Below, piece by piece: positions 35,147-46,998 of a stretch of 64,000 nucleotides of DNA (its first letter is position 1; every line of letters begins with the position of its first letter). This DNA comes from an uncultured Verrucomicrobiae bacterium (GTDB lineage: Bacteria; Acidobacteriota; Terriglobia; Terriglobales; Acidobacteriaceae), in assembly GCA_963795955.1 (NCBI GenBank), contig CAWCJK010000010.1:37367-101366 (forward strand). The letters run 5' to 3'. Below the pieces are notes generated by a model, which saw only the letters and a program-made list of their open reading frames with translations, did not search any database and was not told the DNA's origin. A program made the position numbers and the translations under genes.

Positions 35147-35307
35147 GTTGCTTTTCCTCTTGTTGCGGCCTCAAAAACCAACCGCGAATTTTGTGCTGCG
35201 CGAGGAGCTAGAAGGTCCGGTGAAGCGGCCGGGCTGTTCTCCTCAAAACCTGTTGCAAATCCTGTCATCTCGACCGAAGCGAAGCGCAGCGGAGAGACCT
35301 GCGTTTA

Positions 35308-36698: not shown

Positions 36699-37312
36699 GT
36701 AAGTTCTCCTAAGTTTGGCCAGCCACCTCGGCTGGCAAGCAGCTTGGCAGGCTCACGCCCGACACGCCGCGACGCAGGGTAATGTACCCTGCTGATTGCA
36801 TTTCCCCGATTGTAGGCGGGGTCAGACGCACAGATGCTCAGGTGCGTCCTTCACTATTATCCACGAAATCGGTTCATTGCGAAAGTCGGCACGCCTGCGC
36901 AGTTCTAGCCAGGAGTTCACACGAGTCATCGCTCAAGCTGGCCAAAGTCACGCTGGGTGCGAAGGTCTGCTCGTCAGTTTTCGCTGCGACGGCAGCATCT
37001 GCCGTCGCGTTTCGGATCGAAGCAAGCTGGCCTTTCTGCCAGCGATTTGTCCGGTATACGCCTCACGACGGCCAGGACGGTTTGTCGGCTTTCATGGGAG
37101 CGGTGGGAGCGGCGTTCGTGACCTTCATTATCGTCTCCGCATCTCCTGCTGTCACGTCACGCCGCTCTCCGACGAGTTCACCAGCGTTGGATGACACGGT
37201 CGCGACACGACATAAAACGAAGCGGCGAGCCGAAGCTCGCCGCTGTCTCGTTGATTGTTCTCCGGCCAGACTGTAAGGCCGCGCGAAGCGCGTCCCGCCG
37301 TCCGTTGCAGAA

Positions 37313-39960: not shown

Positions 39961-40836
39961 ATGTGGCCCATGTGGCGTATCTGCCGCCTTCTTCGCCCTG
40001 CTCGACTCGCTTTTGCAGCCCTGCTCTGCTCTTTGCTGCTCGGATCCGCCGCCCTCCTCGCCCAGGCCCCAGACGCAAACGACGGCCCCATTCAGCCCAA
40101 CGCTGACGTCAGTCACCCTCATGCCCTCACCAACGACACCATCATCCGCATGAGCAAGGCCGGGCTCGACGACACCGTCATCATCCAGACGATCCGGACA
40201 CAACCCGGCGCCTTCGACACCACCCCGGACGACCTCATCTCGCTCAAAAACTCCGGAGTCTCCCAGAAGGTGATCGCCGCCATGCAGGCGCGCAGCGCCG
40301 GCCTTGCCATCCACTCCGACACGACGGTCGAGGTCGCACCGCTCGCCGCAGGCGTCGACGAGATCGGCGTCTACTACAAGGACAAGGACGGCCAGTGGAT
40401 CCCGCTCCGAACGGAGCGTGTCCAGTTCAAATCCAGCGGCTGGCTCAAAAACGCCGCCAGTGACGGCCTGATCAAGCAGGACATGAACGGCCACCTTGAC
40501 GGCCAGAAATCCCCGCTCATCCTCCCCACCGGCGTCCAGATCCTCATCTACACGCCGGTCGGCACCCAGGCCGAAGAGTACGACTTCCTCCGCTTCGACG
40601 AGCACTCGGGCAGTCGCGACTTCCGCGTCAAAACCGGCGGCCTCTTCCACTCCGAAACCGGCTCCCTCCGCAACGAAATCGAGTTCCATCCGCAGAAGGT
40701 CGCCAAAGACATGTACGTCTTCACCGTCCCGGCAGACATCGAGAAGGGCGAGTACGGCGTGCTTCCCCCAGGCTCCTCCAACGTGCCCGGCATCTCCAAC
40801 GCGGGCAAGATCTTCACCTTCTCCATTCGCGAATGA
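39961..40836 (+). CDS. Hypothetical secreted protein. It has an N-terminal paired-helix repeat region and a C-terminal beta-rich region.
   Basis: Intact 291 aa with a signal peptide 'MWPMWRICRLLRPARLAFAALLCSLLLGSAALLAQA'. Internal duplicated motif 'LTNDTIIRMSKAGLDDTVIIQTIRTQPGAFDTTPDDLISLKNSGVSQKVIAAMQ'. No confident family match. Confidence 0.6.
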   Translation: MWPMWRICRLLRPARLAFAALLCSLLLGSAALLAQAPDANDGPIQPNADVSHPHALTNDTIIRMSKAGLDDTVIIQTIRTQPGAFDTTPDDLISLKNSGVSQKVIAAMQARSAGLAIHSDTTVEVAPLAAGVDEIGVYYKDKDGQWIPLRTERVQFKSSGWLKNAASDGLIKQDMNGHLDGQKSPLILPTGVQILIYTPVGTQAEEYDFLRFDEHSGSRDFRVKTGGLFHSETGSLRNEIEFHPQKVAKDMYVFTVPADIEKGEYGVLPPGSSNVPGISNAGKIFTFSIRE

Positions 40837-41879
40837 CAAAGACACGATCTTGGTGGCCCTTATGGGTCGGTTTGGCGCTGATCGCGGCTCTTGCAATCCT
40901 GCTGCTGCTCAAAGCCAAGGCCCCGCCCGAAGCCGCCCGCCTGCTCCCCGAAAGCGACGCGATCGTCTACGTCAACCTGCGGCCCCTCCGCACGCTGACG
41001 CACTTCGATCAGCCCGGTCCTGCCATCGCTCCGCCGCGCAGCCACGACCTTGAGAACTTCATCCAGGCCACCGGCTTCGACCCCGAGCGCGATCTCGAGA
41101 GCGCCGCCTTCGCTCTGCACCGTATGCCCGACGCCAACGGGCCGAACGGCATCGTCGCCTACTCCGAGGTCTTCGTCGGCCACTTCGACGGCCCTCGCCT
41201 GCACAAGTACCTCTCCAGCCTCGCGCGTTCCACGGAGACCTACGCCAACCACGAGATCTTTTCCATCCCCGTCCAGGGCCGCACCCTCCGCGTCACCCAA
41301 CTCACCTACGACATCGTCGCCGCCTCCAACGCGCCCACCACCGAGCAGATCCATTCCATGCTCGACCGTTGGGGTGCTTCGGCCCTGTGGAAACCTGGCT
41401 CCACGCTCCTCGCCGCGCGCTTCCACGAGGTCCCGTTGCTCTCGGTCGCCTGGGGCATCGGCCGCATCGGTCTGCCCTTCGGCCAGGACGGCCGCCTCTC
41501 CGTCATGGGCTTCGAACTGCCGGTCCCGATCGACACCGAACTCGTCGCCAGCCTGCGCTACAGCGGAGCCCTGCATCTCCGCGTCGAAGAGATCGCGCCC
41601 GACGCCCTCGCCGCACAGCACACCGCCGACACCGTCAACGGCATCCTCGGCATCCTCCGCGGCGTCGCCAGCGCCGAGCCCCCACACTCGCCACGCCAGG
41701 CCGCCATGCGCGACGTCCTCAGCTCCGTCAACACCGTCCAACGCGGCAACCGCGCGGTCCTCACCGCCGGCATCGCTCTCCAGGACGCCCGCGCCCTCGC
41801 CTCCTCCGAAGGCGAACCCTCCCCCGACCAACCCGAAACCTCCGAAGACACCACCCCGCCAGCACCCACGCCGCGCTGA
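40833..41879 (+). CDS. Hypothetical membrane-anchored (N-terminal TM) periplasmic protein.
   Basis: Intact 348 aa. Its start overlaps the upstream stop (ATGA). The TM helix is 'WWPLWVGLALIAALAILLLL'. The rest has no recognisable domain. Confidence 0.6.
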   Translation: MTKTRSWWPLWVGLALIAALAILLLLKAKAPPEAARLLPESDAIVYVNLRPLRTLTHFDQPGPAIAPPRSHDLENFIQATGFDPERDLESAAFALHRMPDANGPNGIVAYSEVFVGHFDGPRLHKYLSSLARSTETYANHEIFSIPVQGRTLRVTQLTYDIVAASNAPTTEQIHSMLDRWGASALWKPGSTLLAARFHEVPLLSVAWGIGRIGLPFGQDGRLSVMGFELPVPIDTELVASLRYSGALHLRVEEIAPDALAAQHTADTVNGILGILRGVASAEPPHSPRQAAMRDVLSSVNTVQRGNRAVLTAGIALQDARALASSEGEPSPDQPETSEDTTPPAPTPR

Positions 41880-42177
41880 GTTGTGCTCGCCAATCTGAAT
41901 CACCAAAGGTGTGTCATCTCGACCGAAGCGCGTAGCGCGTAGTGGAGAGACCCCCATATTTCGGGGCACCGAAGCAGTCCGCCGAAGCCGCGAACCTCAG
42001 CGCGCGAAAGCACCCGTCACGCCTCCGCGTTGATGCCGTCGACAGCATCCGCCGACCCGTTTCGTACGCTCAGACACACGAAAACTCCACCGCAAACCCG
42101 ATACCACCCAAACGCAACTCATCGCAGATGAGACTGCGCCTCCACTGCATGCCGGCCACGAGGCAGGCAACAGCCTG

Positions 42178-42726
42178 ATGCCCCGTTCCCTCGCAAAAGC
42201 CTGCGCGTGCCTCGCCCTCGCAGCCCTGGCGTCCTCACCGGCTCAAGACACCGCCAACGCCATCCCATCCACCGTCGCGGTAGCCCTGGACAATCACAAG
42301 CTCACCCTCCCGAACGACCTCCCAGCCCGAGCCAACATCCTCATCCTCGGCTTCGGCCGCCACTCCGCCGACGCCACCACCGCTTGGGAGAAATCCGTCC
42401 GGCAACAACTAGCCCGCCCACCCGCAATCGCTTTCTACGACATCGCCATGCTCGCCGAAGTCCCCGGCTTCGTACGCCCCATGGTCATCCGAGCCATCCG
42501 CCACGAGGTCCCCGAAGTCCTCCATCCCAACTTCCTCGTCGTCACCGACCACGAAGACGTCTGGAAGCGCATCGCCGGCTACACCCCTGACCAGCCCGAC
42601 GCCGCCTATCTCCTCCTCGTCGATCACACCGGCCACGTACGCTGGTCAACCCACCAGCCCTACTCGGCGACAACCTTCGCCACCCTAAAAGCCGCAGCCG
42701 AGCAACTCGCCATCCAACCTCAATAG
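42178..42726 (+). CDS. Hypothetical secreted protein (182 aa).
   Basis: Signal peptide 'MPRSLAKACACLALAALASSPAQ'. Intact ORF with no family recognised. Confidence 0.55.
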   Translation: MPRSLAKACACLALAALASSPAQDTANAIPSTVAVALDNHKLTLPNDLPARANILILGFGRHSADATTAWEKSVRQQLARPPAIAFYDIAMLAEVPGFVRPMVIRAIRHEVPEVLHPNFLVVTDHEDVWKRIAGYTPDQPDAAYLLLVDHTGHVRWSTHQPYSATTFATLKAAAEQLAIQPQ

Positions 42727-42727
42727 C

Positions 42728-43543
42728 ATGAGCCCCTTGGCATCGCTTCGAATCCGCTTCTGCGCTGTCCTGCTCGCCTGCGCCACCGTCGCGATCCCCG
42801 TGAACGCACAACGCAAGGTGTCCCCGTCCGCCGCCTTCCGCGAGGCCCGCACGCTCTACTACACGCCCACAGACCACGGCCTCCAGGGCTTCCAGTGCAA
42901 CGTCTCCTTCGACTGGAAGGGCTTTCTACAGAACGCGAACCCAGGCGCAGCGCCAGACGCACCGCAGCCACTCGCCTACCTCCAAAACATCAAGCTCACC
43001 GTTACCGACGACGTCAACGGCTCCGGCAGCATCCACTGGAACGCGCCCGTTCCACCCAGCGACGTCAACCCGGACTCCATCGCCAAGCTCCACTCCAGCC
43101 TCCAGGCCCTCTGGACCGACTTCTTCGACACCTGGAACGGCCTATACAGCGGCGATCTCCTCTCCCTGAACGACGACAAGACCACGGTCGACCGCACCCC
43201 CTCCGGCTACCACGTCTTCGCCCGGGACAACGGCAGAATCGCCGAAGAAAGCTACACCGGCGACTTCACCCTGCAATCCGTCCACGTCTCTACACCCGGC
43301 CTCGACCGCACCGTCACACCACGCTTCGAGCGCACCCCCAAAGGCCGCCTCATCACCGCCTGGGACAGCACCGTCAAACAGCCCCCAACCGCCCCCGGCA
43401 CCACCGTCAGCACCACCGTCCACTACGCGCCCGTGCAGGGCTTCCAGATCCCATCCGATGTCCGCATGGACGTAGCCGGCACCGCAACGTTCAACTTCCA
43501 GTTGACCGGCTGCAGCGTCAACGCCAAGCCCACGGCCAAGTAA
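42728..43543 (+). CDS. Hypothetical secreted protein (271 aa).
   Basis: Signal peptide 'LRIRFCAVLLACATVAIPVNAQ'. It starts 2 nt after the upstream stop. No family recognised. Confidence 0.55.
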   Translation: MSPLASLRIRFCAVLLACATVAIPVNAQRKVSPSAAFREARTLYYTPTDHGLQGFQCNVSFDWKGFLQNANPGAAPDAPQPLAYLQNIKLTVTDDVNGSGSIHWNAPVPPSDVNPDSIAKLHSSLQALWTDFFDTWNGLYSGDLLSLNDDKTTVDRTPSGYHVFARDNGRIAEESYTGDFTLQSVHVSTPGLDRTVTPRFERTPKGRLITAWDSTVKQPPTAPGTTVSTTVHYAPVQGFQIPSDVRMDVAGTATFNFQLTGCSVNAKPTAK

Positions 43544-43550
43544 AACCTCA

Positions 43551-43934
43551 CTAACTGATCAGGTCATTCGCCAAGTGATCCAGCACCTTGCCCGGATCCG
43601 GCGCAATCCCGGTACGTATCGGCGAAATCTGGATCATCGTGCTGCGCGGCGACGTCAGCCAGTGAAACCGCTCCTTCTGCGTCAACCGCGCAATCGGCCC
43701 AGCCTCCGCATCCCCCGCACAAATCCGCGGAATCGCCTCAAGATGCCGGCGCAACGTAGCCAAATCAGCCTCCGGCCACAGCGCACACACACGCTCCTCG
43801 TTCAGCCGAACACGCGCATCCAGAAACCGCCGCTCCGGCGAAAACACAATCACGCCCGCATTCACAAACTCGTCGCGTTCCACCCGCGGCACCACGCGAA
43901 CCACCGCGTAGCTATACCCCTTCGCCTCGTGCAT
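43551..43934 (-). CDS. DUF3037 domain protein.
   Basis: 'YSYAVVRVVPRVERDEFVNAGVIVFSPERRFLDARV' matches the DUF3037 core. It starts 4 nt after the HipA-like gene's stop. Confidence 0.7.
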   Translation of the reverse strand: MHEAKGYSYAVVRVVPRVERDEFVNAGVIVFSPERRFLDARVRLNEERVCALWPEADLATLRRHLEAIPRICAGDAEAGPIARLTQKERFHWLTSPRSTMIQISPIRTGIAPDPGKVLDHLANDLIS

Positions 43935-43938
43935 CAAG

Positions 43939-44715
43939 TTAGCCTCGTGCATCCGCGATCTCCCGCTCGAAAACATCCGAGTGCCGCAAGCGCTCGGTCA
44001 AGAACCGAAGGTAAGCTTGCCGCCTCGCAGCGGGCTCCGTCTCATCATGCTCGCGCACCAGCCAATCCTCCGGAACCAGCCCCGTAATCCGCTCCAACTC
44101 CGCGCTAGTCAGCACCTCATGCGCAAACCGGCTCGCCGCCGGAACCTCAGTAGCCCAACGCAGCAGAATATGATCCCGAATCGCCGCGAACGGCGAGCCA
44201 ATCTTCTCTTCCGCCCCCGCCCAGTTGTGATGAAAGTACAGCGACGCGCCGTGATCAATCAGCCAAAGCTTCTCGCGGCACACCAGCAGATTCGCATTGC
44301 GCGGCGTACGGTCGACGTTCAGCGTAAACGCATCCAGCCACACCGTCCGCGACGCCGTCTCCGCATCGGCCTTATCCCCGCTCGCCGGATCGAACACCGT
44401 CGCCTCGTGCAGAAACGCCAGCCCTACATTCAGCCCACGTGAAGCCTTGAACAGGTCCTGGATCTCCGGGTCAGGCTCCTGCCGCCCAAACGCCGCGTCC
44501 ATCTCCACAAACACGATCTCGGGCACCGGAAGCCCAAGCGCACGCGCAATCTCGCCGGTGATGATCTCGGCCACCAGCGCCAGCGCACCCTGCCCTGCAC
44601 CGCGCAGCTTCACCACATACAGCTTGCCGTCGTCCGCCTCCACCAGCGCGGGAAGCGACCCGCCCTCGCGCAGCGACGTGATGTACCGGACAGCATTGAC
44701 CGTGCGCAGGCTCAC
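43939..44715 (-). CDS. HipA-like (HipA_C) kinase-fold protein, the usual partner of DUF3037.
   Basis: Intact 258 aa. It shows the conserved genomic pairing with DUF3037 and carries HipA_C-like catalytic-loop residues ('LIDHGASLYFHH'). Confidence 0.6.
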   Translation of the reverse strand: MSLRTVNAVRYITSLREGGSLPALVEADDGKLYVVKLRGAGQGALALVAEIITGEIARALGLPVPEIVFVEMDAAFGRQEPDPEIQDLFKASRGLNVGLAFLHEATVFDPASGDKADAETASRTVWLDAFTLNVDRTPRNANLLVCREKLWLIDHGASLYFHHNWAGAEEKIGSPFAAIRDHILLRWATEVPAASRFAHEVLTSAELERITGLVPEDWLVREHDETEPAARRQAYLRFLTERLRHSDVFEREIADARG

Positions 44716-45542: not shown

Positions 45543-46998
45543 CTAATTGGCCTTCGGCGGATTCCCATCCAACACCGGCGGCGTGTGCACAGTTCCATCC
45601 GGCCGTGGAGCCATACTCTTCACATTCGTCATCAGGTCGCTCATCTTCATCCCGCTCAGAGCCTCAAACAACGCCGGCACCTGCGCAGCAATCTTGGTGA
45701 TATCGCCCGTCAGCTTGCTCGCGCCCACGCTCTCGCCATCGCCCGTGGACACAATCGTGATCTTGTCCACGTTGCGACAGCGGCTCCGCCATCGCGCGCA
45801 CCACATCCGCCATGTTCGTGATCAGCTTGTCGACCACCGCGGCCTGCGTCCACTCCTGGTAAGCCTCGGCCTTCACGTTCATCGCCTTGGCCTCAGCCTC
45901 ACCCTTCTGGAAGATGATCGCGGCCTCCGCCTCACCTTGCACACGGATCGACTGCGCTCTGCCTTCTGCCTCCGCAACCAGCCGCGCGCGTTCTGCGTTG
46001 GCCATGTTCTCGATGCGCTGCTTCTCAATCTCTGACCGCTTCAGCACCGTTGCAATCAGCTCGCGTTCATTGCGCTGGATCTCGGCCTCCTGGACCTTCA
46101 CCTGCGCTTCTTTCTCAACCTGCTGCACCTTCACCTGCTCGGCGATGACCTTCTGCTGCATCACGTTCGTCTGCAGCTCATAGGCCTTGTCAGCCTGCGC
46201 CTGCTGCCGCCGGCTCTGCTCAGCAAAGGTCGCCTTCTGGATGTCCAGATCGCGCTGTGCCTCAGCCTGCTTCGCCAACGACATCGTCTCCGCCAGCACA
46301 CGTTCCTGATCCGCAGCAGCCTTCGCCACCGCAGCCTCGCGCAGAGCGATGGCCCGCCGGATCGCCGTATCACGCTCGGCCTCTGCGGCCGCAATCTCCG
46401 CGTCGCGCTTGATGCGCGCCACATCCGGTCGCCCCATGTTGGTGATGTACTCGTTCTTGTCCCGAACCTCCTTGATCGTGAACGAGACTACTTCGAGCCC
46501 CATCTTGCTCACGTCCTCCGAGCACGTGGCGCGCATACGCTCGCCGACCATCTCGGGCTCCTTCACAATCTGCTCCACCGTAAGCTGGCCGATGATGCCG
46601 CGCAGATGGCCTTCCATCACCAGCCGGATCAGGCCCTCGCGCTCCGCCGGCGACTTCGACAAAAACTGCTCGGCGGCGGTCATAATGCTCTCGTTATCAG
46701 AGCGAACCTTGATCTGCGCAACGGCCTCTACCGTCACCGCGACACCCTGCCGCGTATACAGATCCTGCTGCGGAGCCACATCAAAGCTCATCAACTCCAG
46801 CGAGAGCTCCTTGGCGTGCTCCACCATGGGGAAGATGAACGTGCCGTGCCCCTTCACAACGCGCTGTCCGCGCATGCCGTACACAATCAGTGCTTCATTC
46901 GGGCCGGCCTTGCGAAACAGCCGCGCCAACATGCCCATCAGAATGAGCGTTGCAAGCACAATGAGCCCGACGACGACGATGATGGTTTGCTGTGGCAT
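45543..46998 (-). pseudogene. Flotillin (SPFH/band-7 domain; YqiK/FloT-like), with one frameshift near 45790.
   Basis: N-terminal TM plus SPFH domain and a long EA-rich coiled coil in 45664..46998. The conserved C-terminal tail ('VDKITIVSTGDGESVGASKLTGDITKIAAQVPALFEALSGMKMSDL') is in ORF 45543..45806. Confidence 0.8.

Follow-up and report, generated by a model that had tools for sequence, protein, structure and literature searches.

Acidobacteria rank among the most abundant bacteria in soil, and large parts of their envelope biology have yet to be characterized. The described proteins closest to those studied here come from several settings. DsbD-alpha, the DsbD_N domain, has an immunoglobulin-like (Ig-like) fold, and ATP10 is a mitochondrial ATP-synthase assembly factor that we take to belong to Pfam's thioredoxin-like clan. 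A role in carrying lipids or glycolipids has been proposed for TP0453 (30kLP; PDB 3k8g/3k8j), a Treponema pallidum lipoprotein with an alpha/beta/alpha fold (PMC5421087). We analyzed four consecutive open reading frames (ORFs), here called P1 to P4, in a 64,000-nucleotide (nt) stretch of contig CAWCJK010000010.1 from an uncultured member of the Acidobacteriaceae; this whole stretch is referred to below as the window. An earlier reading of the DNA (the original prediction) had described the four as an operon encoding an uncharacterized envelope or periplasmic system.

Compared with the described proteins, the P1 to P4 families are new and have no Pfam model, and their folds, where they could be assessed, are common or probably common ones. 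The original prediction was right that there are four exported proteins without a family, and P1 and P2 do behave as a unit, but the idea of one four-gene unit did not hold. We think it probable that the four genes are a mosaic, produced as individual lineages gained and lost genes at a conserved position in the chromosome, rather than one four-gene machine. The P1-P2 pair appears to be the only real unit among them. P1 to P4 are ordinary lineage-specific exported proteins whose functions are inferred, and they do not constitute a new kind of system.

Gene order in related Acidobacteriaceae loci

The comparison covered 79 related loci, 78 of which were fetched with a profile of 34 P1 homologues from species-representative genomes and 1 by exact look-up (individual loci are identified below by L numbers). 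All were of the Acidobacteriaceae type, e.g., Granulicella, Bryocella, and Terriglobus, and they were searched by tblastn and hidden Markov models (HMMs) for P1 to P4 and their neighbors. P1 and P2 were adjacent in 77 of the 79 loci; the exceptions were a locus at a contig edge and a gp2 metagenome-assembled genome (MAG) in which two tandem P1-like genes lie beside a pst operon. Among the 77, the P1 stop and P2 start overlapped (−4 or −1) in 21, and the median gap was 24 nt. The adjacency of the pair is thus conserved, with translational coupling.

P3 and P4 were found in 30 and 31 loci, respectively. All four genes occurred together in only 18 of the 79 loci and were contiguous in none, with GSDH-like, GFO/IDH/MocA, or paralogue genes intervening. 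Conserved synteny of the four genes across relatives, which had been suggested as a check of the original prediction, is lost for P3 and P4, and because of this loss we do not regard the four genes as a dedicated system.

The usual neighbor of P2 was instead a gene for a GSDH-like beta-propeller dehydrogenase with a signal peptide, which came directly after P2 in about 63 of the 79 loci at a median distance of 92 nt. In 15 of 20 loci, its stop codon overlapped the start of P3, so P3 is normally translationally coupled to the GSDH-like gene and not to P2. In some loci, a gene for a GFO/IDH/MocA oxidoreductase, a protein without a signal peptide, lay between P3 and P4.

The P2-P3 gap and probable loss of the GSDH-like gene

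In the closest relative, an ENA contig (L160) in which P1 and P2 are 85% and 83% identical to those of the window, a GSDH-like gene lies 110 nt after P2. Because this relative still holds the gene, we read the 298-nt gap between P2 and P3 in the window as the probable scar of a recent loss of the GSDH-like gene from its usual position. Such a loss would have brought P3, the usual coupled partner of that gene, next to P2. No GSDH remnant was detectable in the gap, nor did it match any Rfam family; the Rfam matches in the whole window were five tRNAs only.

The gap also contains one of two copies of a short repeated intergenic element with the core TCGACCGAAGCG-N-GGAGAGA (Table 1), whereas no copies were expected in the window by chance. 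Weaker copies occur just downstream of P2 elsewhere (L007, 12145-12185; L011, 12044-12081; and two copies in L052). The element may be REP- or MITE-like.

Distant P2 homologues

A search with the P2 profile against 1.84 billion representatives gave 593 clusters at 50% identity, and most full-length members were about 310 to 360 amino acids (aa) long. No Pfam domain was found in the distant members tested (ten scanned singly gave one stray weak match), and a family scan of all members of the distant-P2 alignment found no recurring family. The cluster-member names of distant representatives were "hypothetical protein" only, plus one Acidobacteriaceae label. The P2 family is broadly distributed and lacks a Pfam model; it would be an extensive, still unnamed family of acidobacterial envelope proteins.

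Members at 28 to 36% identity were aligned and used to fetch 80 metagenomic loci. Homologues of P1, P3, P4, the GSDH-like protein, and the GFO protein were absent from all 80, and part or all of the Gly-Thr-Tyr-Thr tRNA cluster that borders the window locus lay upstream of P2, on the opposite strand, in about 38 of the 53 distant loci scanned for it. Because distant P2 loci lack P1, P3, P4, and the GSDH-like gene and many have the same tRNA cluster, P2 appears to be the ancestral occupant of the site and P1 an insertion within the Acidobacteriaceae.

Distant P2 homologues at this chromosomal site have a conserved downstream neighborhood, that of a split DsbD-type pathway. Among distant loci with at least 2.5 kb of downstream sequence, TlpA/AhpC-like and DsbD_N genes followed P2 on the same strand in 36 of 43, and in 35 of those 36 a CcdA (DsbD_TM) gene lay in between (examples from L080 to L159 are L117, 1453-2265; L143, 1627-2769; and L147, 2331-3470). 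These three genes, which lie next to the tuf-tRNA cluster, together make up a split DsbD system. The median gap between P2 and CcdA was 158 nt versus 46 to 65 nt within the redox genes, and because the former is larger, a separate transcription unit is suggested. CcdA, TlpA, and DsbD_N genes were missing from the window and from 78 of the 79 Acidobacteriaceae loci. None of P1 to P4 is a detectable homologue of the parts of this pathway. Comparisons by hhalign gave no significant relationship among P1 to P4 or between them and the CcdA-cluster proteins, and we rejected the idea that the four are paralogues of each other or of those proteins.

The four ORFs and their products

As had been predicted, the four ORFs are co-directional and intact, with frames open from start to stop (Table 1). 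The ATGA overlap of P1 and P2, read directly from the window sequence, and the 298-nt gap were also described correctly, but the spacer between P3 and P4 is 1 nt (TAG c ATG) and not 2. An N-terminal hydrophobic segment with no later transmembrane-like segment was found in 34 of 34 P1, 39 of 39 P2, 28 of 28 P3, and 26 of 28 P4 sequences (window proteins plus orthologues); the claim that each protein begins with a signal peptide or membrane helix thus applies to the window proteins and nearly every orthologue. Scans of P1 to P4 against Pfam, NCBIfam, and PADLOC produced no match reaching a curated threshold, in agreement with the claim that none belongs to a nameable family, and profile searches of PDB sequences gave only noise for all four proteins. 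For P1, 424 homologues were found; P2 had more than 4332 and P4 had 98, and the loci contained 30 orthologues of P3. Because these numbers far exceed those of chance ORFs, we take P1 to P4 to be real genes, and judged from their sequences all four appear to be genuine genes for exported proteins.

Table 1. Positions of P1 to P4, their parts, and nearby features in the window
Feature	Position (nt)	Strand	Length	Description
P1	39961-40836	+	291 aa	GTG 39928 or ATG 39970 are alternative starts
P1 signal peptide			~aa 1-35	
P1 helical repeats	40117-40308	+	aa 53-116	Two helical hairpin repeats
P1 C-terminal part	40360-40833	+	aa 134-291	Predicted Ig-like beta-sandwich, preceded by a low-confidence linker
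P2	40833-41879	+	348 aa	
P2 membrane anchor	40854-40919	+	aa 8-29	N-terminal; probable uncleaved anchor
P2 remainder				Invariant PPEAARLLPE motif; two predicted alpha/beta lobes, then a variable Pro/Glu/Ser-rich tail
P2-P3 intergenic gap	41880-42177	no strand	298 nt	
P3	42178-42726	+	182 aa	Signal peptide; probable cysteine-less thioredoxin-fold domain (ATP10/TlpA-like)
P4	42728-43543	+	271 aa	Signal peptide; domain with two invariant cysteines, C57 and C262
Repeated element, copy 1	41912-41952			Inside the P2-P3 gap
Repeated element, copy 2	35263-35299			
DUF3037 and HipA_2-type kinase	43551-44715	−		
Flotillin (Band_7/SPFH)	45543-46998	−		Frameshift near 45772

P2. The hydrophobic segment of P2 is followed directly by AKA-PPE. 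Because proline at +1 disfavors signal peptidase I, the segment is probably an uncleaved membrane anchor. Lipoprotein anchoring through a lipobox cysteine was rejected, as the segment is a hydrophobic helix and P2 has no conserved cysteine. The P2 model (pLDDT 63) consists of the membrane helix, two alpha/beta lobes, and a disordered tail. Its best match was TP0453, with TM-scores of 0.25 to 0.33 and 7 to 8% identity in structural alignments; the model is moderate, and the likeness suggested by it is a resemblance at the level of the fold only. The model can also be likened to Mog1/PsbP-like alpha-beta-alpha envelope proteins, namely, DcrB, LpqN, MTC28, and PsbP. Whereas TP0453 has a lipid-modified cysteine, P2 has a transmembrane anchor and no conserved cysteine. 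A profile of 39 P2 sequences detected no sequence homology to PDB chains at E values of ≤10.

P1. P1 occurs in the Acidobacteriaceae, and one gp2 MAG (L078) contains genes that resemble it more weakly. Mean column identity across the family is 70%, and a family scan of all members of the P1 alignment gave no recurring family. The internally duplicated helical motif that had been claimed for P1 is weak in the sequence (hhalign P of 6e-4 over 16 columns) but better seen in the AlphaFold2 model (34 sequences; pLDDT 70), which has two helix-hairpins, H58-66/H71-80 and H89-97/H102-112. The hairpin pair has no named counterpart. The beta-rich domain predicted to follow the repeat is modeled as an Ig-like beta-sandwich. 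It resembles generic bacterial Ig-like domains (Leptospira 6oe6, filamin repeats, CopC/PmoD, and the cores of LPMOs), with scores at the level expected for any beta-sandwich. Unlike the copper-binding sandwiches, P1 has no N-terminal histidine after the signal peptide and neither conserved cysteines nor a conserved His-Met pattern; lacking the His brace and a conserved set of metal ligands, it was rejected as a member of the LPMO, CopC, or PmoD type. Assignment of P1 or P4 to DsbD_N (DsbD-alpha) was likewise rejected, since hhalign gave probabilities below 2% against the DsbD_N-like neighbors of distant P2 and P1 has no conserved cysteine.

P3. The sole weak family match among the four proteins was that of P3 to ATP10 (PF05176; E of 0.0046, 16.7 bits, against a Pfam cutoff of 22.3). 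Weak ATP10 matches in the C-terminal half were obtained for 18 of 28 P3 orthologues, including the window protein, the best at 7.3e-5. Being below the Pfam gathering threshold, P3 was not accepted as an ATP10 member, and nothing points to a role in ATP-synthase assembly. Against the TlpA-like neighbors of distant P2, P3 gave a weak in-register hhalign match (P of 0.026) in which the N-terminal strand and the "VLILGF" strand of P3 align with those of the TlpA-like proteins. Both P3 and TlpA are exported, but where redox-active relatives have WCxxC, P3 has HSxDA, and the 28 P3 orthologues contain no invariant or near-invariant cysteine. Unlike TlpA, ResA, and AhpC, then, P3 has neither a CxxC motif nor a peroxidatic or any other conserved cysteine. 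For lack of a conserved cysteine, P3 cannot be a thiol-disulfide oxidoreductase of these types; it is probably a redox-inactive thioredoxin-fold protein.

P4. None of the 98 homologues of P4 has a Pfam domain, and P4 has no sequence relative in the PDB. The family appears to be lineage restricted. In its 31 loci, P4 is sometimes accompanied by a tandem paralogue (L024, 7392-8225, and L043, 3331-4215). Tandem paralogues of P1 were seen in four loci (L057, 8781-9629; L072, 2667-3689; L076, 10761-11108; and L078, 8864-9673), and both families thus undergo local duplication.

Alternative explanations

Several features of the loci weigh against a mosaic. When present, the genes keep their order and strand and are separated by short gaps (the P2-GSDH median of 92 nt and about 1 to 64 nt between P3 and P4), and consensus scans of the window found no promoter-like or plus-strand terminator-like site between the four genes. 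A single transcript, together with a looser functional association, may remain compatible with the data. In addition, synteny within one family is partly shared descent, and the adjacency of P1 and P2 is not proof that their products interact. The same features are what would be expected if P1, P2, the GSDH-like protein, P3, and P4 belonged to one periplasmic or envelope operon that has lost accessory parts piecemeal, with the window holding a reduced four-gene version. The order P1-P2-GSDH-P3-(GFO)-P4 is collinear and co-directional wherever it is found, with gaps that are short or overlapping; export signals are present on all the products except GFO; and P4 homologues of only 24% identity still lie downstream of P1-P2-GSDH in L073 and L075. 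However, P3 is lacking in more than 60% of the loci, as is P4, and the two do not always occur together; the array includes a gene for a cytoplasmic GFO/IDH/MocA protein, and all 80 distant loci contain P2 without any of the other genes. The four proteins are linked neither by profile similarity nor by domain logic. Because flanking housekeeping genes (tuf, PspA, and flotillin) keep their order equally well, the conservation of order is largely inherited. We consider a single operon of this kind unlikely.

The redox genes that follow P2 in distant loci raise another explanation, that P2, or the locus, acts in periplasmic thiol-redox chemistry, P2 being an accessory of a split DsbD-type reductant pathway whose partners were replaced in the Acidobacteriaceae. 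The weak signals relating P3 to the thioredoxin fold and the Ig-like sandwich of P1, as in DsbD-alpha, are in its favor. Yet conserved cysteines are missing from P2 and catalytic ones from both P1 and P3, and neither the P1-DsbD_N nor the P3-TlpA profile comparison was significant; moreover, the P2-CcdA gap suggests separate transcription, and the window and nearly all the Acidobacteriaceae loci lack the redox genes. On balance, this explanation is quite unlikely. It can be extended to the whole family: P2 would work with periplasmic redox enzymes and in most lineages head a split DsbD-type pathway, and in the Acidobacteriaceae the partner set would have been exchanged for P1, the GSDH-like protein, P3, and P4. 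We regard the extended form as very doubtful; if it were true, the window cluster would be a remodeled periplasmic electron-handling or enzyme-maturation system and not a set of unrelated neighbors. It is extremely improbable that any of the four ORFs is spurious (a chance frame in GC-rich DNA) or in decay (a pseudogene). High-GC DNA does yield many long overlapping ORFs in this region, and the neighboring flotillin gene is frameshifted. But the reading frames are intact, and full-length homologues are numerous for each ORF, sharing conserved columns as well as the N-terminal signal; this conservation refutes the idea.

A model for the locus

If the four genes are a mosaic, as we favor, P2 would be an old acidobacterial protein encoded directly beside the tuf-tRNA cluster, with its one N-terminal helix in the inner membrane and its two TP0453/Mog1-PsbP-like alpha/beta lobes extending into the periplasm. 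There it may serve as a ligand-binding module, for lipid or glycolipid, or as a protein-docking module on the periplasmic side of the inner membrane. P1 would have been inserted before P2 within the Acidobacteriaceae and then become translationally coupled to it; we infer that P1 is a soluble protein of the periplasm that is produced in step with P2, acts as its partner, and perhaps binds it. P3 is probably an accessory or chaperone of the exported GSDH-like dehydrogenase, and deletion of the dehydrogenase gene in the window genome would have left it orphaned next to P2. P4 would be a separate secreted protein, presumably stabilized by one disulfide.

With this model, what looked like a puzzling operon of four genes resolves into parts that can each be tested: the tightly coupled and highly conserved P1-P2 pair, the P2 family, and P3 with a periplasmic GSDH-like dehydrogenase. 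For experiments, the most useful targets are the pair and the wide P2 family. Should P2 prove to be a lipid-handling protein or an accessory of a redox pathway, hundreds of protein clusters would be annotated.

Chromosomal surroundings

The locus lies where it had been described, beside a tRNA cluster and opposite a DUF3037/HipA-like pair. The tRNA genes, Gly(tcc)-Thr(ggt)-Tyr(gta)-Thr(tgt), are just upstream of P1 on the minus strand, and DUF3037, HipA_2 kinase, PspA, and flotillin genes follow downstream of P4, also on the minus strand. The accompanying statement that the neighbors are not intact applies to flotillin only. Against that gene, a full-length orthologue aligns in frame −2 to residue 408 and then in frame −3, reflecting either a pseudogene or a sequencing error; DUF3037, HipA_2, and PspA gave full-length Pfam matches with no sign of disruption.

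The DUF3037 and HipA_2-type kinase genes match both components of PDC-M66, a PADLOC candidate defense system (component B, E of 1.7e-13; component A, E of 1.9e-22). In the comparison with PADLOC anti-phage defense models, only this neighboring pair was matched, and P1 to P4 were not. The pair occurs in about 16 of the 79 related loci, and its variable presence fits a mobile accessory module.

Between positions 37000 and 48000 of the window, the GC skew of the plus strand is −0.15 to −0.36 and is strongest over P3 and P4. Because the skew is negative whichever strand the genes occupy, the coding strand of P1 to P4 is unusually C-rich.

An Acidobacteriaceae-type locus, at 46 to 77% identity, also occurs in public MAG records labeled as other phyla or classes. 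These are L012, L015, L018, and L058 (Verrucomicrobia/-ae), L059 (Acetobacteraceae), L070 (Polyangia), and a protein, P0111 (Janthinobacterium lividum). Most of these MAG records contain P1, P2, and the GSDH-like gene. Such labels on an Acidobacteriaceae-type locus suggest mislabeled or contaminated bins.

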